A stretch of 24,010 nucleotides of DNA from a virus (taxonomy: Duplodnaviria > Heunggongvirae > Uroviricota > Caudoviricetes). Position 1 is the first letter of the stretch, and every line of letters begins with the position of its first letter. Positions 9,129 to 22,957 of the stretch are shown piece after piece. Position numbers and translations under genes: made by a program. The stretch lies in IMG/VR virus record IMGVR_UViG_2684622581_000006. One strand, written 5' to 3'. Under the pieces are notes generated by a model, which had not been told where the DNA came from, searched no databases, and worked only from the letters and a program-made list of their open reading frames with translations.

Positions 9129-10895
9129 ATGAACACCACACTGACACCCGCAGATCTCGATCCCCGTCGGCAGGCCATGCTGCTGTACTTTCAGGGATAC
9201 CGCGTAGCCCGCATTGCTGAAATGCTGGGCGAGAAAGTTGCAACCGTTCACAGCTGGAAAAAACGCGACAAGTGGGGTGACTATGGGCCGCTGGATCAGA
9301 TGCAGCTCACCACCGCCGCACGCTACTGCCAGCTCATCATGAAGGAGCACAAAGAAGGGAAAGATTTCAAAGAGATTGACCTGCTGGCGCGCCAGTCTGA
9401 GCGCCACGCGCGGATCGGCAAGTTTAACAATGGCGGCAACGAAGCCGACTTAAACCCTAACGTCGCCAACCGCAACAAAGGCCCGCGCCGTCAGCCGGAA
9501 AAAAATGTCTTCACCGATGAACAGATTGAGAAGCTGGAAGAAATCTTCCATTCCTCCATGTTCAACTACCAGCGCCACTGGTGGGAAGCCGGAAAAACCA
9601 ACCGCATCCGCAACCTGCTGAAGTCACGCCAGATCGGCGCGACCTTTTACTTTGCCCGTGAAGCCCTGATTGACGCCCTGCTTACCGGGCGTAACCAGAT
9701 TTTCCTTTCCGCCAGTAAGGCACAGGCCCACGTCTTTAAGCAGTACATCATCGACTTCGCCAAAGAAGTGGAGGTGGAGCTGAAAGGCGATCCGATGGTG
9801 CTTCCTAACGGGGCCACGCTTTACTTCCTCGGCACCAATGCCCGCACTGCCCAGAGTTATCACGGCAACCTGTATCTGGATGAATATTTCTGGATACCGA
9901 AATTCCAGGAGCTGCGCAAAGTGGCTTCCGGTATGGCTATTCACAAGAAATGGCGACAAACCTATTTTTCCACGCCATCCAGCCTGACTCATAGTGCTTA
10001 TCCGTTCTGGTCCGGTGCGCTGTTCAACCGTGGGCGCAACAAAGCCGACAAGGTGGACATCGACCTGTCCCACAGCAATCTGGCCCCCGGCCTGCTGTGC
10101 GCAGACGGGCAATACCGCCAGATAGTCACCGTGGAAGATGCGGTGCGCGGCGGCTGTAACCTGTTCGACCTTGACCAGTTGCGCATGGAGTACAGCCCGG
10201 ACGAATACCAGAACCTGCTGATGTGCGAGTTTGTGGACGATCTCGCGTCCGTGTTCCCGCTCAGCGAGCTGCAGGCGTGCATGGTGGACAGCTGGGAAGT
10301 CTGGACCGACTTTCATGCACTGGCTCTGCGCCCGTTTGGCTGGCGCGAAGTGTGGATCGGTTATGACCCGGCAAAAGGTACGCAAAACGGCGACAGCGCC
10401 GGATGCGTGGTGGTGGCACCGCCAGCCGTGCCTGGTGGTAAGTTCCGCATTCTTGAGCGTCACCAGTGGCGCGGGATGGACTTCCGCGCCCAGGCTGACG
10501 CCATCAAAAAACTGACCGAGCAGTACAACGTGACCTACATCGGCATCGACTCGACCGGCGTCGGCCACGGGGTTTACGAGAACGTGAAAGCATTCTTTCC
10601 TGCCGTCCGGGAGTTTGTCTACAACCCCAACGTTAAAAACGCCCTGGTGCTCAAGGCCTACGACATTATCAGCCACCGCCGTCTGGAGTTTGACGCCGGA
10701 CACACCGACATTGCGCAGTCATTCATGGCAATCCGTCGCGCCACCACCGCCAGCGGCAACCGCCCGACCTATGAAGCCAGCCGCAGCGAAGAAGCCAGCC
10801 ATGCCGATCTGGCCTGGGCAACAATGCACGCACTGTTTAACGAACCGCTGCAAGGCGAGTCCGCCAATACCAGCAATATTGTGGAGATTTTTTGA
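9129..10895 (+). CDS. P: Terminase ATPase (large) subunit P
   Basis: 588 aa (P2 gpP is about 590); transcribed divergently from O and followed by Q with a 4-nt overlap, exactly as in P2. Confidence 0.9.
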   Translation: MNTTLTPADLDPRRQAMLLYFQGYRVARIAEMLGEKVATVHSWKKRDKWGDYGPLDQMQLTTAARYCQLIMKEHKEGKDFKEIDLLARQSERHARIGKFNNGGNEADLNPNVANRNKGPRRQPEKNVFTDEQIEKLEEIFHSSMFNYQRHWWEAGKTNRIRNLLKSRQIGATFYFAREALIDALLTGRNQIFLSASKAQAHVFKQYIIDFAKEVEVELKGDPMVLPNGATLYFLGTNARTAQSYHGNLYLDEYFWIPKFQELRKVASGMAIHKKWRQTYFSTPSSLTHSAYPFWSGALFNRGRNKADKVDIDLSHSNLAPGLLCADGQYRQIVTVEDAVRGGCNLFDLDQLRMEYSPDEYQNLLMCEFVDDLASVFPLSELQACMVDSWEVWTDFHALALRPFGWREVWIGYDPAKGTQNGDSAGCVVVAPPAVPGGKFRILERHQWRGMDFRAQADAIKKLTEQYNVTYIGIDSTGVGHGVYENVKAFFPAVREFVYNPNVKNALVLKAYDIISHRRLEFDAGHTDIAQSFMAIRRATTASGNRPTYEASRSEEASHADLAWATMHALFNEPLQGESANTSNIVEIF

Positions 10896-11920
10896 TGGGA
10901 AAGAGTAAGAAGAACCGCGCTGCGGCGACGAAACAGATCCAGCTTAAAAGTCAAACTACAGCCGAAGCATTCAGCTTCGGCGATCCCGTTCCTGTTCTGG
11001 ACCGCCGAGAACTGCTGGACTATGTGGAATGCGTACAGACAGATCGCTGGTATGAGCCGCCAGTAAGCTTTGACGGACTGGCGCGCACCTTCCGCGCCGC
11101 CGTGCATCACAGTTCACCAATTGCGGTGAAATGCAACATTCTGACCAGTACCTACATCCCTCACCCGCTGCTCAGCCAGCAGGCTTTTTCACGTTTTGTG
11201 CAGGACTATCTGGTATTTGGTAACGCCTACCTGGAGAAACGCACGAACCGCTTCGGTGAAGTTATCGCCCTTGAGCCTGCTCTGGCAAAATACACCCGAC
11301 GCGGGTTAGACCTGGATACCTACTGGTTTGTGCAATACGGTATGACAACCCAGCCGTATCAGTTCACGAAAGGCAGCATTTTTCATCTGATGGAACCGGA
11401 CATTAACCAGGAGATCTACGGCCTGCCCGGCTATCTTTCTGCCATTCCGTCCGCCCTGCTCAATGAGTCCGCCACGCTGTTCCGCCGCAAGTATTACATT
11501 AACGGTAGTCATGCAGGCTTCATCATGTACATGACCGATGCTGCGCAGAACCAGGAGGACGTGAACAACCTCCGCAATGCAATGAAAAGTGCCAAAGGTC
11601 CGGGTAACTTCCGCAACCTGTTTATGTACTCGCCTAACGGCAAAAAGGACGGGCTTCAGATTATCCCGTTGTCAGAGGTGGCGGCGAAGGATGAGTTTTT
11701 GAATATCAAGAACGTGAGCCGCGATGACATGATGGCTGCGCACCGCGTGCCGCCGCAAATGATGGGGATTATGCCTAATAATGTTGGAGGGTTTGGGGAT
11801 GTGGAGAAGGCCGCAAATGTGTTTGTGCGCAATGAACTTTTGCCATTACAGAAACGCATGGAGGAGTTAAACCATTGGCTGGGTGAGAAAGTTATTGCAT
11901 TTTCATCCTATTGTTTATGA
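10892..11920 (+). CDS. Q: Portal (capsid vertex) protein Q
   Basis: 342 aa (P2 gpQ is about 344); last gene before the cos region in P2-family genomes. Confidence 0.9.
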   Translation: MMGKSKKNRAAATKQIQLKSQTTAEAFSFGDPVPVLDRRELLDYVECVQTDRWYEPPVSFDGLARTFRAAVHHSSPIAVKCNILTSTYIPHPLLSQQAFSRFVQDYLVFGNAYLEKRTNRFGEVIALEPALAKYTRRGLDLDTYWFVQYGMTTQPYQFTKGSIFHLMEPDINQEIYGLPGYLSAIPSALLNESATLFRRKYYINGSHAGFIMYMTDAAQNQEDVNNLRNAMKSAKGPGNFRNLFMYSPNGKKDGLQIIPLSEVAAKDEFLNIKNVSRDDMMAAHRVPPQMMGIMPNNVGGFGDVEKAANVFVRNELLPLQKRMEELNHWLGEKVIAFSSYCL

Positions 11921-11964: not shown

Positions 11965-12777
11965 TTATTTTACTCTAAAGGCATCATCGGCTTTATGTGG
12001 TATAGGAGCATAACGCTCGGTACTTACTCGATGTAGCACCGCAAATATATTCAAAGGTGAACCATCCTTTAACCTAAGAGAAACATACATTGGCATCGTT
12101 GGTGTTAACCCCCGATTTAGGCCAACAGTGGCACCACTTACTTTCATACCATTTTCTAAAGATGCATTTTCAATAAACCCCTGAGTGAATGTGCTTTCTC
12201 CATTGACCATAACAACAACATCATCATGCTTAATTGTATTATCCATAATCATCATAAAATCAGCAATTGGTTCTAAAAAATCCATTGCTGATAATTTCAC
12301 TATCTTACCCCCATCACCATCCTTAATATCATAGGAGAGGTTTGAATACTTCTCAGGATTAGGAATATACGTATTTTGTTGATTAATGACATCTATAATT
12401 TGTCTTATTGCCACATCGATCCCATACGAATAAAGATCAATATATAGCGTTTGAGTAAGCAGAGCAGGCAAGGATATATTCTGGCAACGTATTGGTATAA
12501 ATTTACACTTCCCGGACGATGCCTTAATTAAAGCATTTTGCCATTCCATTTTTACCATGTTACTTGCCAAACTATTTTCTGTGACAAAAAAGAAAAAGAA
12601 CGATACATTCTCCATTCCTAAATTCATCTTGTCAATAATACCCTCTCCGGGTTGGATAGACCAAGAATCGTAGAATACGTTATCACGCCCATAAACATCT
12701 GCTAGTTTTTCCGCTATAACACTTACAAACCTTTTGTCACGGTGATTATGACTTAGAAAGATCATAGCATGCCCCAT
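11965..12777 (-). CDS. TIR-domain protein with about 135-aa C-terminal domain of unknown function (cargo; candidate anti-phage protein)
   Basis: N-terminus IFLSHNHRDKRF...FYDSWSIQPGEGI...FFFFFVTENSLASNMVKMEWQNA has the bacterial TIR hallmarks (F-x-S-H start, aromatic run, W-x-x-E helix with a candidate catalytic Glu near residue 78). Strongly AT-rich compared with flanking phage genes. Start could be M1 (12777) or M5 (12765). Confidence 0.75.
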   Translation of the reverse strand: MGHAMIFLSHNHRDKRFVSVIAEKLADVYGRDNVFYDSWSIQPGEGIIDKMNLGMENVSFFFFFVTENSLASNMVKMEWQNALIKASSGKCKFIPIRCQNISLPALLTQTLYIDLYSYGIDVAIRQIIDVINQQNTYIPNPEKYSNLSYDIKDGDGGKIVKLSAMDFLEPIADFMMIMDNTIKHDDVVVMVNGESTFTQGFIENASLENGMKVSGATVGLNRGLTPTMPMYVSLRLKDGSPLNIFAVLHRVSTERYAPIPHKADDAFRVK

Positions 12778-12846
12778 TAGAAATTAATGTGTAAGATCTG
12801 CGTAGAGAGTCACCGACAGTGTACCAATAATAATCTTCTGCGCGCA

Positions 12847-12865
12847 ATCGTATCCCCGCCACGCC
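12847..12865. other. Candidate cos (cohesive end) site, P2/186-type
   Basis: Reverse complement reads GGCGTGGCGGGGATACGAT, matching about 15/19 of the recalled 19-nt cohesive end of phage 186 (GGCGTGGCGGGGAAAGCAT) and P2 (GGCGAGGCGGGGAAAGCAC). It sits in a GC-richer non-coding stretch (12780-13065) on the expected side of Q. From memory only; coordinates +/- 2 bp. Confidence 0.4.
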
Positions 12866-13065
12866 TGCCCACTTTATGTAGTGGTTTTCATGCACCTGCA
12901 TGACATAAGCAAAAGCACGCCAGTTCTGGCTGGCATCAGCGAAAACGATCGTCATACTATCATGCGATCTCATGCGCCATATGAAGTTTTCCTGACACAG
13001 CCTTGGGTTGGGATAACACCTAACTCAGGAAGATTTTTTGTGTGTTTGTAACCCACACCTAGAGT

Positions 13066-14235
13066 TTACCAATCCATGTTTGCGGCATTATCCATCTCAC
13101 GAGTTAAGTAATTAACAAATAAGTCCATATTCCTTTCTGATTTCATCGCCTCCGCATAGGTTCCATTAGTTACGTAAGATAGTATTAAAGGACATCCAGA
13201 TTCAATATAAATTTTTGCTGGGGACAGTTCTCCCTGCCACAAATTTTCAAGAAAATCGTTAATTAATTGCATTGCTTCAGGTGCCAAAAAATGCACACCA
13301 TTTCCAAACTTGAAACGTTCTTTATTTTCTCGATGAGGCAGCAATAGTGGCACAGCCCCTACACTTGAGTGAAATTCCAATGCTTGCCCATCCTTACCGA
13401 AGGCGCCATGGGCTACAAAATTACGCACCTGTTTTCTGAGTATAAGTAAACGATCATAGAACAATTTTAGACTGGAAGAGTTAATATCAATGGCTAATTT
13501 GAATTTCTCCCCCCATTCTTTTCCAACTTTATCAGCCACATCATTCCCATTTTTTATCTCACCCTTCAAGATTGCAATAAGAATGAAAACATGCTCGGTC
13601 CAATTGAAAAATGACTCAATTGCAGACGTTGCTAACCACATAGCCTCTCTTCGGAGTTCAATTATCTTATTTGATTGTTCAAAAGTGGATTGTAACAGGC
13701 TGAAAAAATTATCAGACTTAAACTCACTATCAACTTCCAGTTTAGACTCTTGGCCAGCAGCAACTTCATCAAGCTTCTGTTTATATAGCTCTAAAAAATA
13801 GCAAAACCTATCATAAAGAGAATTAGCATTGTTATTAACATTTAGATTTGAAGTCTTTGCTGCATTGTCTGCAAGCGAGTCAAAAAAATTCGTAGCAGCT
13901 TTAACCCCTGCGCAAATATGTCTCAAAACAATTTTAGCTTGCTCTATATCATCATCACTCTTGATAAATATATCTAAACCAAGTTTACGATGTTCTATAA
14001 TTACGACAGTCCCATCAATCCGGACTGGGATAGAAAAAGAAATCTTCTCATCAACCCCACGATTTTTAAATTTCAGTAAATCTACCAAAAGAAAATAAAC
14101 GAGATAATACGGAGGTAATGAGTCTCCCAAACCCGAGCGCTTACCCCAAAAATATTCATCAAGCTCGGCAGACTCCATTGTCCCTATGACTCTTCGGACG
14201 CGTTCTTCAACTTTAGCCAGATCCATTCCCCACAC
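13066..14235 (-). CDS. Hypothetical 389-aa protein with HEPN-type R-N-x-x-A-H-G motif (cargo; candidate nuclease effector)
   Basis: Long AT-rich ORF between A and cos at the position where P2 carries old/tin. Contains LRKQVRNFVAHGAF (R271..H276), a canonical Rx4H HEPN signature. No further family recognised by eye. Confidence 0.6.
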   Translation of the reverse strand: MWGMDLAKVEERVRRVIGTMESAELDEYFWGKRSGLGDSLPPYYLVYFLLVDLLKFKNRGVDEKISFSIPVRIDGTVVIIEHRKLGLDIFIKSDDDIEQAKIVLRHICAGVKAATNFFDSLADNAAKTSNLNVNNNANSLYDRFCYFLELYKQKLDEVAAGQESKLEVDSEFKSDNFFSLLQSTFEQSNKIIELRREAMWLATSAIESFFNWTEHVFILIAILKGEIKNGNDVADKVGKEWGEKFKLAIDINSSSLKLFYDRLLILRKQVRNFVAHGAFGKDGQALEFHSSVGAVPLLLPHRENKERFKFGNGVHFLAPEAMQLINDFLENLWQGELSPAKIYIESGCPLILSYVTNGTYAEAMKSERNMDLFVNYLTREMDNAANMDW

Positions 14236-14738: not shown

Positions 14739-17153
14739 TTAATACAGGTTCCGCCACTTATCATCTTCCCACAAACGCTGGTTCCGATAGAAGATACGCA
14801 AGCCTGCTCCTGACGGAATACTGCCGCCGCGAAGGAGTAAATCGACCTCTTTCTCGCTGCCATCAAATCCTCTGGACTTCAGCTCATAGACGAGCTGCAG
14901 TCGCTGATGGTCTGTAATTCGCTGTTTGTAGTCTTTACGCCGTTTCGGTTTAACCAGGCGTAACCTTGCTGCCAGTTCCCGGCGCTCTTTTTTGCTCATA
15001 CTGTGCAGGTAATCGTGCAACTCCTTGTCATCCATGCGGGTAATGTCCGTTCTGGTGTCCCCATCAGCTGATTTATCTTTCTCCTGTTGGTTCAAATTTT
15101 CAGCAAGGGGACAGTTATTGCCACGAGTCCAAGGGGCGCAAGTGCCCTGGTCGGCTGCCGCCTCCTGAACGTCAACGGCCTTACGAACCATTTTCCACTT
15201 CACTGCATGAGTGCAGATCTTGCCCTCTGCAATGGGTGACCAGATGCCATAAATACGAATACCGTGATCGCCATAGGCGGTTGGCTCTTCGTTGATTTCA
15301 TAAGCGGTTCTGATGAGGTGATATTTGCGGGGAACCAGTACGCCGCCCTGCTTCATGATGTAGGTGGCAAAACAACCAGCATCAGCAGCAGCCAGGATGG
15401 CATCAAGGCGCGGGTTATCCAGTACCGGCGCACCTGCTTTTTTGTCACCCTGTTGCCTTGCCGCCTGACCAGCCAGCAATCGCAGTTCACGGTAAGCCTG
15501 ACGCCCCGGAATGCCAAAGAAGCGGAATTGCTGAACACGATGCAGAGACGCCCAGGCATTAACGTATTCAGCGTTATCACGCAGGGATTTACCCGTTTCC
15601 TTACTGATCTCGCCAGCCAGACCACGCCCGTCAATATTCTTACTGATATATTTCGCAATGTAGCTTGTCGGCGTTCCTTTGCGCGGGTTTATCAGCTCAG
15701 ACTTAAAGCGTGGCCCCGTGTTATTGCCCAGCTCCTCGCGGTCTTCACGGATGGCAAACTTACGCAACAATGCAGTAATGGCGCGGCGCTCTTTTTTGCG
15801 CATGAAACACAACAGGTGCCAGTGAACTGTGCCGTCATGATGCGGCTCAGCCACCCGCACGCCATACCAGCGCAACCCGGCTTTGTGCATAGCCTTACGA
15901 AATGCAGCAAACATGCCGACCAGATAATCGCTGCTTTGTCTTACTGTCGCGTTGGTCCAGGTCGGGTTTGGCCTGCCGTTATTTAGCGTGGAATGGAAAC
16001 GTGACGGACAGGTGATGGTGTAGAAAACGGCGCAGTCACCACGCATTTCCGCGATAAGCTCCAGGCCTTTAACACAGGCCATCATCTCATTGCGGCGATG
16101 CGCCGGGTTGCTGCTGCTGGCGTTTACCACATCCTCCATGTTCAGCGTGTCGCCGTCTTCGTTCACCAGTTCATGAGAACGGAAAAACTCCAGCGACTTA
16201 CGGCGCTGCTCACGTTTATGCATCACGGCTTCATAGCTGACATAGGGAGATGCTTTTTTGCTGACCAGGCTGACAGCACGCAACTGCTCTTCCCGCCATT
16301 CGCAACGCATCTTCCATAATTTCCGATACCACCAGTCGGCGCACAGCATACGCGCCAGCGAACCCGGAATGAGTTCATAGGGCACAGGTTTGCGGCGGTT
16401 TCTTTTCCGGCGGAGTTGCTCAAACGCAGGCGGTATGACATCCAGTCGCAGGGTTTCTGCAGCCACCTTTTCCCATGTCTTGCGGATTTCTTCTGGCTTA
16501 ACATCATCGGAGGCGTACAAATCACCACAAGCGGCATCAAGACACATGCTCATATGCGCAGCGACAAGGGTAGACAGGCGTTTCACCTGATCCTGACTCA
16601 TTTCAGGCAGGATCAGCAGACCGTCCAGCCCTTCATGGCTTGCCATAAAACGAAAAGATGCAGATAGCTGGCTGTCGCGTACATGCTCCAGTCGTTCCAG
16701 ACATGGCTTAATCGTCTCACGCAAATAGCGGGAATAAGCCTTTGGCCTGCCCAGGCTGCTGAAATATTCAATACGTTGCATCAGCGGCTTGCTGATATGG
16801 GAAGGCTGGGCGTTGACGTCGGCCAGAATGACCATGTCCGGATTAAAACGCTGCTGCTCATGCGCCATCTTTGCCCGGCTAATGAGCTTATCCTGCTCCA
16901 TTTCGCGTTGGACAGGATCACGGGATTCATTAAAGAAATAACGCTCCCAGACCTGATCACTCAGTGCCTCGCGGCGCAGTTGTTCCTGCTCGTTATCAGT
17001 AGCGTACAGAGTGATCAGGTTTGAAAGCGCAGAAACCGGCGCAACTTCCGCCGGGTCCAGATAAGGGTTAATGGCCTTTTTCGGGCTGTTCCATGAGAAT
17101 GCTGCGGCGACCTCGTTAAAGCCGCTGCAGTTGTTCATATCAGCATGGCTCAT
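14739..17153 (-). CDS. A: Replication initiation protein A (rolling-circle nickase)
   Basis: 804 aa; HUH-like motif (TVHWHLLCF) and the YIAKYISK tyrosine motif typical of P2 gpA-family initiators; preceded by dam with overlapping stop/start. Confidence 0.9.
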
Positions 17154-20146: not shown

Positions 20147-21097
20147 ATGTCAACTCAAAAATTCACATTTCGCCATATGAATGACGATATGAAAGCCGCT
20201 GTCATACAGAATCGCGGTGGTCAGAAAGTAATTGAGCGGATCCTCATGGCTTATGGCTTCAAGTCACGCCAGGCATTCTGTAATCACCTAGGTATTTCCC
20301 AAAGCACGATGGCTAACAGATATGCCCGCGATACATTTCCAGCAGATTGGGTTGTTATCTGCTCGATGGAGACAGGCGCATCAATTGAATGGCTAGCATT
20401 TGGTTCAGGTGTTAAAGAAAGAATGTCATCTTCTTCACTAGAACAACATGCTGAAAAACAAACCGAAGATGGACTTTGCGACAAAGTTCACTCTTCCCCC
20501 ACTCTGTTCGATAATGAAATCCACATGAATTTCACTCATGGAGGAAAAGCAGTAATAGAACGAATTGTTGAAGCTTACGGTTACAAGACACGTCAAGCCT
20601 TAGCTGATCACCTTGGTATTTCAAAAAGCACGTTAGCCACACGATATATGCGTGATACTTTTCCTGCTGATTGGGTAATTCAGTGTGCTATCGAAACAGG
20701 AGTATCCATCACGTGGTTAGCCTTTGGGAAAGGAGATAAAATAGAAAAAAATAGCAGTTTAAACTGTATAAATATACCAAAGTTTACTCTAAATAATGCA
20801 AAATTAATTGAGAGCGGGAACTCGATATTTGATAAAAATCTGTTACCTGAAAATACGATATTTCCTTGTTTGATTGAAAATGTAAATAACTTTTACATTT
20901 GTGAAAAAAGATTCAATAATATTATTGATGGCGAGTGGATCGTTGGTATTGATGGAGATATCAGTATTCGAACAATCACTAAATTACCTAATGAAAAAAT
21001 TCAAGTAAAAAATAAAAACATAGTTTTTGAATGTTCAATAAACGAAATCGAATTTATTGCAAAGATCGTATTATCCATTAATAATGTTAGAGGTTAA
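20147..21097 (+). CDS. cI: CI-like immunity repressor with two tandem HTH (186 CI-type) domains and an AT-rich C-terminal domain
   Basis: 316 aa. Two homologous segments (VIERILMAYGFKSRQAFCNHLGISQSTMANRYARDTFPADWVVICSMETGASIEWLAFGSG and VIERIVEAYGYKTRQALADHLGISKSTLATRYMRDTFPADWVIQCAIETGVSITWLAFGKG) recalled as the 186 CI N-terminal HTH fold; divergent from apl-cII. Confidence 0.65.
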   Translation: MSTQKFTFRHMNDDMKAAVIQNRGGQKVIERILMAYGFKSRQAFCNHLGISQSTMANRYARDTFPADWVVICSMETGASIEWLAFGSGVKERMSSSSLEQHAEKQTEDGLCDKVHSSPTLFDNEIHMNFTHGGKAVIERIVEAYGYKTRQALADHLGISKSTLATRYMRDTFPADWVIQCAIETGVSITWLAFGKGDKIEKNSSLNCINIPKFTLNNAKLIESGNSIFDKNLLPENTIFPCLIENVNNFYICEKRFNNIIDGEWIVGIDGDISIRTITKLPNEKIQVKNKNIVFECSINEIEFIAKIVLSINNVRG

Positions 21098-21098
21098 A

Positions 21099-22253
21099 AT
21101 GACTGACAGCAATTATATCAATAATAATTCTCTTGAGGACACAATAGAGATAATCGAAGAAGAACAGAACGATTCTTACTCAAATGATGATTTATACAAT
21201 ATAAACTCATGGGGGGCCGATTTATCTTTTAGAGAACTTATTACAATGTATGATGAGGGCGAACTTCAGAAACCAGAACTTCAAAGAAATTATGTTTGGG
21301 ATAAAGTCGAAGCCAGTAGATTTATAGACTCATTATTGCTAGGTCTTCCTGTTCCGAGTATTTTTTTAGCAAATACGTCTGACGAAAACAAACTCATTAT
21401 AGATGGTTTTCAGAGAATCATGACTGTCTATGATTATGTGACAGGTATATGGTCAAAAGATAGTAGAGTCTTTAAACTTTCCGATAGTAGAAAAATTAAT
21501 GCAAAATGGCGTGGTAAGGCCTTTAATGAACTTACAGTTTCAGAAAAAAAGAAAATTCGCTCAACAACTATACACGCTATAATCTTTGAGCAAACCGTTC
21601 CGTCGAACGATGATACTAGCCTATATCAAATTTTTGAGCGTATAAATACTGGTGGACGTTCACTAATGGCTCAAGAAATACGTAATTGCGTATATCAAGG
21701 GAAATTAAATACTCTATTGATAGAACTAAACAATAATATCAAATGGCGTACTTTATTCGGTTCTAATAAACCAGATGCACGAATGAGAGATATGGAATTC
21801 ATTCTAAGAGGCTTGGCTCTTAACACGCAGAAAATAAAGAGTCATGAACCAGCAAATATTTCTCTAAAAAAACTCCTTAATGAATATATGGGTGATAAAG
21901 CAAATAACACCTCTGACATGATCGACACCATTAAAACCGATTTTGAAAACACCATTAATTTTATTCATGATAATATAGGACCAGATGCATTCTTTAATAT
22001 AATCCAATCAGATCCATCACGTATACGTCGTCGTTTTTATCCAACCATTTTTGATGCATTATATGTCGCAACATCCATTGCATTAAATTCAGGTGAAGAC
22101 ATAAACACTAACGATCTAGAGCATAAAAGAAATGAGTTACTACAAAATCAGACATTTCGGTCACATATCACATCTGGTACAATGCAGATAGAAAATATAC
22201 ATGGAAGAATTTCAATGGCACTGGAGTTTCTTTATGGCATTCAATATCGTTAA
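21099..22253 (+). CDS. DUF262 (ParB/Srx-like, GmrS-type N-terminal domain) protein (cargo; candidate defence component)
   Basis: ORF 21057-22253; start at MTDSNYINN (ATG about 21099) is preceded by GAGG and begins 1-2 nt after the cI stop. Contains LQRNYVWDK and IIDGFQRIMT, matching the DUF262 F/YQR.YVW and DGQQR signatures. Very AT-rich. Confidence 0.7.
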   Translation: MTDSNYINNNSLEDTIEIIEEEQNDSYSNDDLYNINSWGADLSFRELITMYDEGELQKPELQRNYVWDKVEASRFIDSLLLGLPVPSIFLANTSDENKLIIDGFQRIMTVYDYVTGIWSKDSRVFKLSDSRKINAKWRGKAFNELTVSEKKKIRSTTIHAIIFEQTVPSNDDTSLYQIFERINTGGRSLMAQEIRNCVYQGKLNTLLIELNNNIKWRTLFGSNKPDARMRDMEFILRGLALNTQKIKSHEPANISLKKLLNEYMGDKANNTSDMIDTIKTDFENTINFIHDNIGPDAFFNIIQSDPSRIRRRFYPTIFDALYVATSIALNSGEDINTNDLEHKRNELLQNQTFRSHITSGTMQIENIHGRISMALEFLYGIQYR

Positions 22254-22869
22254 TAATAATGCTAAAAATAGCATTATAGATTGTTTAAAGGAACTTGAGA
22301 GTATAGAGAAGATGATAGAATCTTCTGGCCCCACTACAACTATTGTTAAATATTTAACACGATATTCAATTATTAGAACCTGCGGAACCATTGAATATTC
22401 TTTCAAAACAATCATTAGCGATCATAAATATGATCAACATAGTGAACAAATACAAAGATTCATTGATGAAAAATTCAGAAATAGTTCAATGAACCCTAAT
22501 TACGATAATATTTGTAAGGCACTTGGTTCATTTGATAATAACTGGTGTAACAACTTTAAGGACAAAATCAAGAACGATCCGCACTCAAATAAATTACGTG
22601 ATTCGTTGAAATCTTTAAATAGAGCCAGAAATGATTTCGCTCATGGAAAAAGCCCCACAGTATCATTTCAATATATTTTCGACTATTTTATAGATAGTGT
22701 AGCCATTATTCAGAAGATGGAGTCATCAATACTTGATTTAGAAGCGACAAATACGAATATTGGATTAACTAAATCTAACGACCGAGATAATACATTTTCT
22801 GATTTAGTTAATAATTCACAAAGAAATATCGCTAATGACCCTGAAAATAATTTAAGAGCAGATTTATAG
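22234..22869 (+). CDS. Hypothetical protein with HEPN-type R-N-x-x-A-H-G motif (cargo; candidate nuclease partner of the DUF262 protein)
   Basis: ORF 22201-22869; start at MAFNIVNN (about 22234) is preceded by GGAG about 10 nt upstream and overlaps the DUF262 stop by about 20 nt. Contains LNRARNDFAHGKSP. AT-rich. Confidence 0.6.
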   Translation: MAFNIVNNNAKNSIIDCLKELESIEKMIESSGPTTTIVKYLTRYSIIRTCGTIEYSFKTIISDHKYDQHSEQIQRFIDEKFRNSSMNPNYDNICKALGSFDNNWCNNFKDKIKNDPHSNKLRDSLKSLNRARNDFAHGKSPTVSFQYIFDYFIDSVAIIQKMESSILDLEATNTNIGLTKSNDRDNTFSDLVNNSQRNIANDPENNLRADL

Positions 22870-22932
22870 CACACCCTTGTCTGTTTTAATGAAATCATAC
22901 ATTGACCACTGTATATAAGCACAGTTAAATTT

Positions 22933-22952
22933 AGCCCTCTGATATGAGGGCT
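22933..22952 (+). terminator. Hairpin immediately upstream of int (possible attenuator or RBS-sequestering structure)
   Basis: AGCCCTC-tgatat-GAGGGCT followed by TCTTT and then the int ATG. Confidence 0.35.
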
Positions 22953-22957
22953 TCTTT

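Follow-up and report, generated by a model that had tools for sequence, protein, structure and literature searches.

The junction between the repressor gene cI and the integrase gene int of a 186-like prophage was found to carry a two-gene cassette that is very probably an anti-phage system of the PD-T4-2 type. The window, that is, the whole stretch analysed (IMG/VR record IMGVR_UViG_2684622581_000006; 24,010 nt, with coordinates counted from its first letter), is an E. coli prophage of the Peduoviridae, 186-like and integrated beside rcdA, and the cassette encodes a DUF262 protein (gene A) followed by a HEPN protein (gene B). PD-T4-2, a "DUF262, HEPN" system from E. coli ECOR65, protects K-12 against T4, and its deletion sensitises the native host ECOR65 to this phage (Vassallo et al., 2022; PMC9519451). 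The defence role of the window allele is assigned by homology to this validated system of the same architecture. Judged by profile models, the pair is a divergent PD-T4-2 subfamily and not a close orthologue of the ECOR65 system. The system type, the defence role and the kind of locus have already been described.

The first-pass annotation, made from the letters alone, had placed here a DUF262 protein with QRNYVW and DGFQR signatures and without an HNH-like C-terminus, together with a separate, overlapping HEPN protein with an RNDFAH motif. These features were borne out by hidden Markov model searches with the families it had named. Gene A matched Pfam GmrSD_N/DUF262 (PF03235) with E = 2.5e-26 over residues 46-199, its sole Pfam domain at E <= 1, and gene B matched HEPN_RiboL-PSP (PF18735) with E = 2.4e-19, while the Pfam search detected no DUF1524 or HNH domain in either protein, even at E <= 1. 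Both signatures of gene A were located (Table 1), and the DGQQR-type motif reads DG(F/Y)QR in this family, with F or Y at position 104 in the 33 members compared. NCBIfam had no model for either protein, and PHROGs contained an unannotated family for gene A only.

The ATG of gene A lies 1 nt past the cI stop codon, with a GAGG sequence 5 nt upstream, and the ATG of gene B follows a GGAG at 7 nt, within a 20-nt overlap between the two genes. Both starts match the RefSeq annotation of an identical locus, and the N-termini of homologues align with the ATG at 21099 and, in 30 homologues, with the ATG at 22234. Of the values first proposed, the 1-2 nt between cI and gene A was right (1 nt) and the lower bound of 211-222 aa held for gene B. 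The longer frames, a 398-aa gene A instead of 384 aa and a 222-aa gene B starting at 22201, were discarded, since the RefSeq starts and the homologue N-termini fit the shorter ones. The DNA is very AT-rich, as had been noted, with a GC content of 0.26-0.34 over ~20600-22900 versus 0.50 for the whole window, and of 32% for the two-gene cassette. With stops making up about 7.6% of random codons at 32% GC, the probability of a frame staying open by chance would, by our own arithmetic, be ~1e-13 for 384 codons and ~1e-7 for 211 codons.

Table 1. Features of the cI-int region of the window.
Feature	Coordinates	Strand	Remarks
cI repressor, 316 aa	20147-21097	+	Pfam Phage_CI_repr x2 (8.5e-59), Phage_CI_C (1e-23); RefSeq "phage repressor protein CI"
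Variable AT-rich segment relative to EC6563	20734-22896	+	cI C-terminal domain, DUF262 gene, HEPN gene, 27 bp downstream
cI C-terminal (oligomerisation) domain	20734-21094		GC 0.26; GC at third codon positions 0.22
GAGG Shine-Dalgarno of DUF262 gene, within cI 3' end	21090-21093	+	read from sequence
cI stop codon TAA	21095-21097	+	read from sequence
DUF262 gene (gene A), 384 aa, presumed DNA sensor	21099-22253	+	ParB/Srx-like NTPase + C-terminal helical ParBDB-like domain
QRNYVW motif (Q62-W67), ParB-like domain	21282-21299	+	Q62, R63, W67 invariant, 33 sequences
DGFQR motif (D102-R106), the family's DGQQR NTP-binding/hydrolysis motif	21402-21416	+	D102, G103, Q105, R106 invariant
GGAG Shine-Dalgarno of HEPN gene, inside DUF262 gene 3' end	22223-22226	+	read from sequence
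HEPN (RiboL-PSP family) gene (gene B), 211 aa, presumed RNase effector	22234-22869	+	core residues 1-170, then low-complexity tail
Rx4H catalytic motif R132-N-D-F-A-H137 (RNDFAH)	22627-22644	+	R132, N133, F135, H137, G138 invariant, 31 sequences
HEPN C-terminal tail	22741-22866		
Conserved int leader, right slot border	22897-22957	+	present with five different cargos
int leader hairpin	22933-22952		AGCCCTC-TGATAT-GAGGGCT
Tyrosine integrase int, 350 aa	22958-24010	+	Pfam Int_N 6e-32, Phage_integrase 6.1e-22

Among the PADLOC models, the best match of gene A was the Menshen sensor NsnA (1.2e-65, 220 bits, model positions 23-380 of 385), and PD-T4-2_A was matched with 1.8e-55 (186.5 bits, positions 18-360 of 363). 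The matches to HEC-05/06 and SspE were weak and limited to the N-terminus. On these profile scores gene A is closest to the NsnA and PD-T4-2_A sensors and not to the GmrSD/BrxU/SspE nucleases, which had first been taken as its nearest kin. Like those enzymes, gene A has at its N-terminus a DUF262 NTPase domain that carries QR...W and DGxQR motifs, but their DUF1524 His-Me domain is absent here, the effector is a separate HEPN protein and gene A has 384 aa versus 580-770 aa. The similarity in sequence is confined to ~50 residues, the only match in a PDB sequence search being to BrxU (7p9k, E = 5.6e-5), and identity with a GmrSD/BrxU/SspE enzyme was rejected for want of a DUF1524 domain in either protein. 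Residues 200-384 were modelled confidently by AlphaFold as a helical domain, and the best structural matches of this predicted C-terminal half were the DUF262 proteins BrxU and DndI. Gene A had 2791 homologues at E <= 1e-5, with identities of 62-83% among the matches listed.

The predicted model of gene B was all-helical (mean predicted local distance difference test score, pLDDT, of 87) and adopted the alpha-helical bundle of the HEPN fold; a PDB sequence search with this protein gave no match. Its family comprised 1132 clusters (50% identity) at E <= 1e-3 and 364 at E <= 1e-10, and gene B is ~50% identical across the family. The invariance of the Rx4H motif argues that the protein is a catalytically active RNase and not a mere regulator. 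Residues ~170-211 form a low-confidence, low-complexity tail of ~40 aa, and most of the top matches listed are 160-170 aa long. Acidic or low-complexity C-terminal tails, variable in sequence and ~10-70 aa in length, were seen, among the homologues compared, in Enterobacterales alleles only (the window and P0122-P0128). The tailed alleles include all those traced to 186-like prophages and in addition P0126-P0128, and the chromosomal versions of 164-169 aa have no tail.

The invariant Rx4H motif also bears on an improbable alternative, according to which the DUF262 protein itself would be the effector, a ParB-fold DNase of type IV-like action, with the HEPN protein as an accessory or regulatory partner or as an independent RNase arm. 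A 2013 survey counts ParB folds among the DNase domains and describes HEPN-containing operons with a "ParB nuclease" (PMC3710099), gene A matches the PADLOC model "REase_II" (1.1e-11), and GmrSD and BrxU, to which it is related, cleave DNA in a modification-dependent manner (PMC10952713). However, in GmrSD, BrxU and SspE the DUF262 domain serves as NTPase/sensor (PMC10952713) and DNA is cleaved by the DUF1524 His-Me domain, which is missing here, and the HEPN active site is invariant in 31 sequences.

The assignment to the PD-T4-2 type is based on the shared organisation. As in PD-T4-2, an E. coli accessory element carries a two-gene operon in which a DUF262 protein (PF03235) without DUF1524 precedes a small RiboL-PSP HEPN protein, with A directly followed by B on one strand, and the PD-T4-2 B protein likewise matches PF18735 by HHpred (PMC9519451). 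PADLOC has a single two-gene entry of the DUF262+HEPN kind, and each of the window proteins matches it. When nine DUF262 proteins were scored against PD-T4-2_A, the three highest scores (181-198 bits) belonged to the family of the window and the other six reached 49-160 bits. With PD-T4-2_B the match of gene B was weak (1.6e-8, 32.8 bits, model positions 9-139 of 168), and the scores in its family were 23-38 bits, with a match in eight of the ten representatives sampled and none in two. The ECOR65 reference consists of RCO39066.1 and an unannotated ORF downstream (contig QOYX01000002:338334-339873); it did not appear among the top 120 homologues listed or in the phage collection. The reference locus measures 1540 bp (A of ~353 aa, estimated) versus 1771 bp here, and the window HEPN protein has the extra ~40-aa tail relative to the reference. 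The low B-model scores, the few bits per model position and the different locus lengths are the grounds for speaking of a divergent subfamily. P24B2, Klebsiella phi5.4, Vibrio PE003, Akkermansia Chambord and EcoM-689R6 were tried as stand-ins for the PD-T4-2 reference and rejected, as they scored below the window family on the PD-T4-2 models.

The split two-gene architecture proposed in the first-pass annotation therefore stands, but not as a new type, since it had already been named and validated as PD-T4-2 and predicted in 2013. In the HEPN survey of that year, RiboL-PSP-HEPN genes were listed in an "operon with ParB" (Anantharaman et al., 2013; PMC3710099). That class has the same gene neighbourhood and was predicted to act in conflict or defence; the work was computational only and included no prophage cI-int context. 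Reviews place PD-T4-2 among the DUF262 systems without DUF1524 that are still uncharacterised (PMC10952713; PMC12065111). Menshen (NsnABC) is the other close comparison. Gene A has the NsnA architecture, a ParB-DUF262 domain plus a C-terminal ParBDB-type helical domain, and Menshen effectors are predicted to be mostly RNases, with protection against T2, T4 and T6 (PMC12065111; Millman 2022; Li et al., 2025). By contrast, the window has neither the NsnB ABC-ATPase transducer nor the NsnC inPIN-effector, and HEPN and then int follow downstream. Identity with Menshen was rejected because NsnB and NsnC are absent from the slot.

To follow the pairing of the two genes, seven independent genomic contexts (12 loci) around gene A homologues were compared. 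An overlapping gene was present directly 3' of the DUF262 gene in all seven, in the same A-then-B order, so that the co-occurrence check proposed with the first reading gave a positive answer. Six of the seven carried the Pfam HEPN_RiboL-PSP label; in the Serratia locus (L009) the second open reading frame (ORF) had no Pfam label and was syntenic and blastn-homologous to the window HEPN gene up to 22496. An A/B overlap of 20-23 nt with a GGAG-like purine-rich site before the ATG was found at six of seven loci, the sequence being exactly GGAG in the window, L006, L008 and L009, and a variant in L012 (GAGGG) and L014 (GGAA). Purine-rich sites also precede the DUF262 ATG in the relatives. Judged from these neighbourhoods, the two genes form one obligatory unit.

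The order cI-DUF262-HEPN-int was observed in 186-like prophages of E. coli (an allele with 83% protein identity), Yersinia enterocolitica and Serratia marcescens, with 8-12 nt between the cI stop and the DUF262 ATG in those relatives versus 1 nt in the window. Free-standing cassettes were present among housekeeping genes in Aeromonas veronii, Candidatus Nitrotoga and a Tenuifilaceae (Bacteroidota) metagenome bin. The cassette had a GC content of 29-36% at all loci, even with flanks of 60% GC. This low GC content despite richer flanks, together with the high sensor identity across phyla, suggests a recent and wide horizontal spread with strong purifying selection on the cassette. Within E. coli, the whole cI-DUF262-HEPN-int block was found at >= 99.6% identity in 10 of 5426 complete genomes, where RefSeq names the products "GmrSD restriction endonuclease domain-containing protein" and "HEPN domain-containing protein". 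At L012, L014 and L016 the cassette (5001 to ~6620) has 29-35% GC and the flanks 52-60%. Sensors from Bacteroidota and Proteobacteria share 64-70% identity.

Related DUF262+HEPN cassettes were also found at other phage loci. One, a divergent DUF262 + RiboL-PSP-HEPN pair, stands directly after cI in the Vibrio prophage PQ189364; another occupies P2 hotspot 1 of P24B2, with HEPN_MAE_28990 as the partner, and a third lies in the tail-fibre hotspot of a Klebsiella Reipivirus. In the Akkermansia phage Chambord (L025 1845-4655) a repressor, a DNA methyltransferase, a DUF262 gene and a RiboL-PSP-HEPN gene follow one another in this order. The methyltransferase link recalls the "ParB nuclease and DNA methylase" operons described in 2013. 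Since the methyltransferase adjoins the pair in Chambord, there is a hint that some DUF262+HEPN relatives discriminate self by methylation.

The overlap of the genes and the spread of the cassette would also suit a toxin-antitoxin-like addiction module, in which the HEPN protein would be a toxin neutralised by the DUF262 protein and the module would stabilise the prophage or the cassette. The genes appear translationally coupled, the top structural neighbours of the gene B model are the HEPN toxins of HEPN-MNT toxin-antitoxin systems (8xdj, 5yep and 7ae2), and the cassette is also found as a free-standing, AT-rich, chromosomal island of two genes. Nevertheless, this explanation is improbable: the Pfam search found no nucleotidyltransferase (MNT) domain in the HEPN partner, which is the DUF262 protein, a 384-aa ParB-like NTPase with a DNA-binding-type domain that goes far beyond the needs of an antitoxin, and the same architecture gave phage defence in K-12 and in the native host (PMC9519451). 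Moreover, it is compatible with defence, as many toxin-antitoxin-like modules act as abortive-infection defences.

Several points weigh against the reading of the pair as a PD-T4-2-type defence cassette expressed with the repressor. The defence phenotype of the window allele and its subfamily is predicted from related systems. The PD-T4-2_B match is weak (33 bits), and the higher score of gene A with NsnA (220 bits) than with PD-T4-2_A (186 bits) marks it as a divergent relative. The literature searched contained no published mechanism for PD-T4-2; DARNA (2026 preprint), considered as such a mechanism, was rejected because it corresponds to PD-T7-3, with a different HEPN protein. An identity of 62-83% between sensors of different phyla is unusually high for a gene engaged in an arms race. 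In the AlphaFold prediction the N-terminal DUF262 domain (residues 1-199) stayed below a pLDDT of 50, probably due to a too-uniform alignment. Finally, a promoter scan gave 12 sites versus 14.7 expected, which is not above chance, and an internal promoter is therefore neither claimed nor excluded.

The pair is probably transcribed with cI from the lysogenic pL-type promoter, because the spacing between cI and gene A is 1 nt, there is no terminator-like site before 22933 and phage 186 provides an analogous lysogenic operon, annotated as pL-cI-int-orf69. The interval from cI through the HEPN gene contained no terminator-like site, and one was called just after it. The 20-nt overlap points to translational coupling of the HEPN gene to the DUF262 gene.

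The specific order of events from sensor to RNase can be put forward with somewhat less than even confidence. The pair would be made in the lysogen off the pL-type transcript, directly behind cI, and the two proteins would form a complex, as the translational coupling of their genes suggests. The sensor, with its ParB/Srx-like NTPase and its ParBDB/GmrSD-middle-type DNA-binding domain, would bind incoming phage DNA. The likeliest targets would be T-even phages with modified cytosines, because PD-T4-2 acts against T4, Menshen protects from T2, T4 and T6, and cytosine modifications are what GmrSD and BrxU recognise; the systems selected with T4 generally also covered T2 and T6. The binding or hydrolysis of nucleoside triphosphate (NTP) by the sensor would then free or activate a HEPN dimer, and this dimer would cut RNA and halt phage production.

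The position of the cassette was examined by comparison with related phages. The cassette is absent from phage 186, where int adjoins cI directly, and from P2, where 115 bp separate the C and int genes, in agreement with the ~1.8 kb of extra DNA claimed at first for the window. Against the closest backbone relative, EC6563 (L002), the blastn homology (90.8%) ends at 20733 and resumes at 22897 with 95%, and the exchanged block therefore comprises the C-terminal domain of cI plus the cargo. Other prophages at the rcdA site carry different genes in the slot: PD-Lambda-1 (DUF4041+T5orf172; 400 bits; L018 2321-3997), a second cI plus a KAP-family NTPase (PDC-S20, 262 bits; L019 1514-3980), a 324-aa protein of no confident family (L002 3958-4932), which is a defence candidate, or only a 63-aa ORF (L020 3691-3882). 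Among 186-like prophages of E. coli, the cI-int junction thus serves as a variable slot for defence cargo. No flanking repeats of a transposon or integron-like insertion were found, and no Rfam families.

This variability also bears on whether the pair serves the prophage's own biology, through ParB-like partition or regulation or through control of lysogeny, instead of defence. Its ParB-like fold and its place in the immunity operon beside cI would fit such a role, which is nonetheless very unlikely: sister prophages that share the backbone have unrelated genes in the slot, the cassette exists outside prophages in distant phyla, and phages 186 and P2 do without it. A defence hotspot between cI and integrase was described in K139-like, P2-related Vibrio phages (Rousset et al., 2022; PMC9122126), with variable defence cargo directly 3' of cI as in the window, and the placement seen here is this hotspot pattern extended to E. 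coli 186-like phages. The differences are the hosts and phages (186-like prophages of E. coli and other Enterobacterales), the rcdA site, the inclusion of the cI C-terminal domain in the block and the end of the block at an int-leader hairpin. A minor P2 hotspot between integrase and primase was mentioned in a 2026 preprint.

The right border of the slot is an int leader of ~60 nt, kept in the rcdA-site prophages whatever the cargo. It contains a hairpin followed by a T-run into the int ATG, called as terminator-like and present in the minimum-free-energy fold. One possible role of this hairpin is to shield int from the cI-cargo transcript, as an attenuator or terminator; another is to control translation. 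Its 3' arm, GAGGG, resembles the int Shine-Dalgarno. A leader variant, GCTCTCT...GGAGGGC, appears to retain most of the stem pairing (pairs uncounted).

A bolder and rather doubtful proposal is that the subfamily represents a minimal, transducer-less Menshen-like pathway, built into the immunity operon, in which a HEPN RNase would be under the direct control of an NTP-dependent DNA clamp of the ParB type, the cargo would be made together with cI and the leader hairpin would keep int low. Its trigger might then be something other than cytosine modification, given that sensors of 62-83% identity are found across phyla, in hosts with widely differing phages. If true, it would offer a tractable model for the communication between a ParB-fold sensor and an RNase effector, and for the way in which 186-like phages swap the "cI C-terminal domain plus defence" as a unit. 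As it stands, the locus is a clear, natively placed example of a PD-T4-2-type DUF262+HEPN system, with the slot cargo placed for expression together with the immunity repressor, and a small share of E. coli strains may owe their T-even resistance to prophages of this kind. Current concepts are unchanged, and the interest left lies in how the class works, in the extremely conserved sensor, in the exchange of the cI C-terminal domain with cargo and in the tandem-domain cI beside the cassette.

The cI protein, encoded by what is presumably the leading gene of the lysogenic operon, contains two tandem Phage_CI_repr helix-turn-helix domains (aa 23-96 and 131-204; 65% identical) and one Phage_CI_C domain. 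The duplicated helix-turn-helix in a 186-type repressor could alter operator spacing or immunity specificity. In prophages with the same cargo in other hosts cI is an ordinary protein of 187-188 aa, the cI of EC6563 has 314 aa, and E2348/69 carries two tandem cI genes of 189 and 307 aa. The recombination breakpoint falls inside cI, between its domains, and the C-terminal domain belongs to the exchanged AT-rich block. This domain is 32-45% identical to those of sister prophages, versus 64-83% for the neighbouring helix-turn-helix domain. The idea that the C-terminal domain tracks the cargo was dropped, as it applied only to the closest E. coli allele (62% identity); elsewhere the identity was 32-45% whatever the cargo, so a linkage between this domain and the cargo is not established.

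On the minus strand upstream of cI lie an apl/cox-like gene, cII, fil, DUF5347, DUF2732, a TraR-like gene, dam and gpA. Additionally, the portal gene (10892-11920) and gpA (14739-17153) flank the classical P2 defence hotspot 1 (11965-14235, minus strand). This hotspot encodes a 270-aa TIR-domain protein (Pfam TIR_2, 1.3e-22) with weak PADLOC matches to TIR-NLR, PDC-S66 and ThsB, and an adjoining 389-aa ORF without a match in Pfam, PADLOC, NCBIfam or PHROGs; the two may be a second defence pair. In the otherwise identical prophage CE0011b, a different gene, of 469 aa, was found at hotspot 1.

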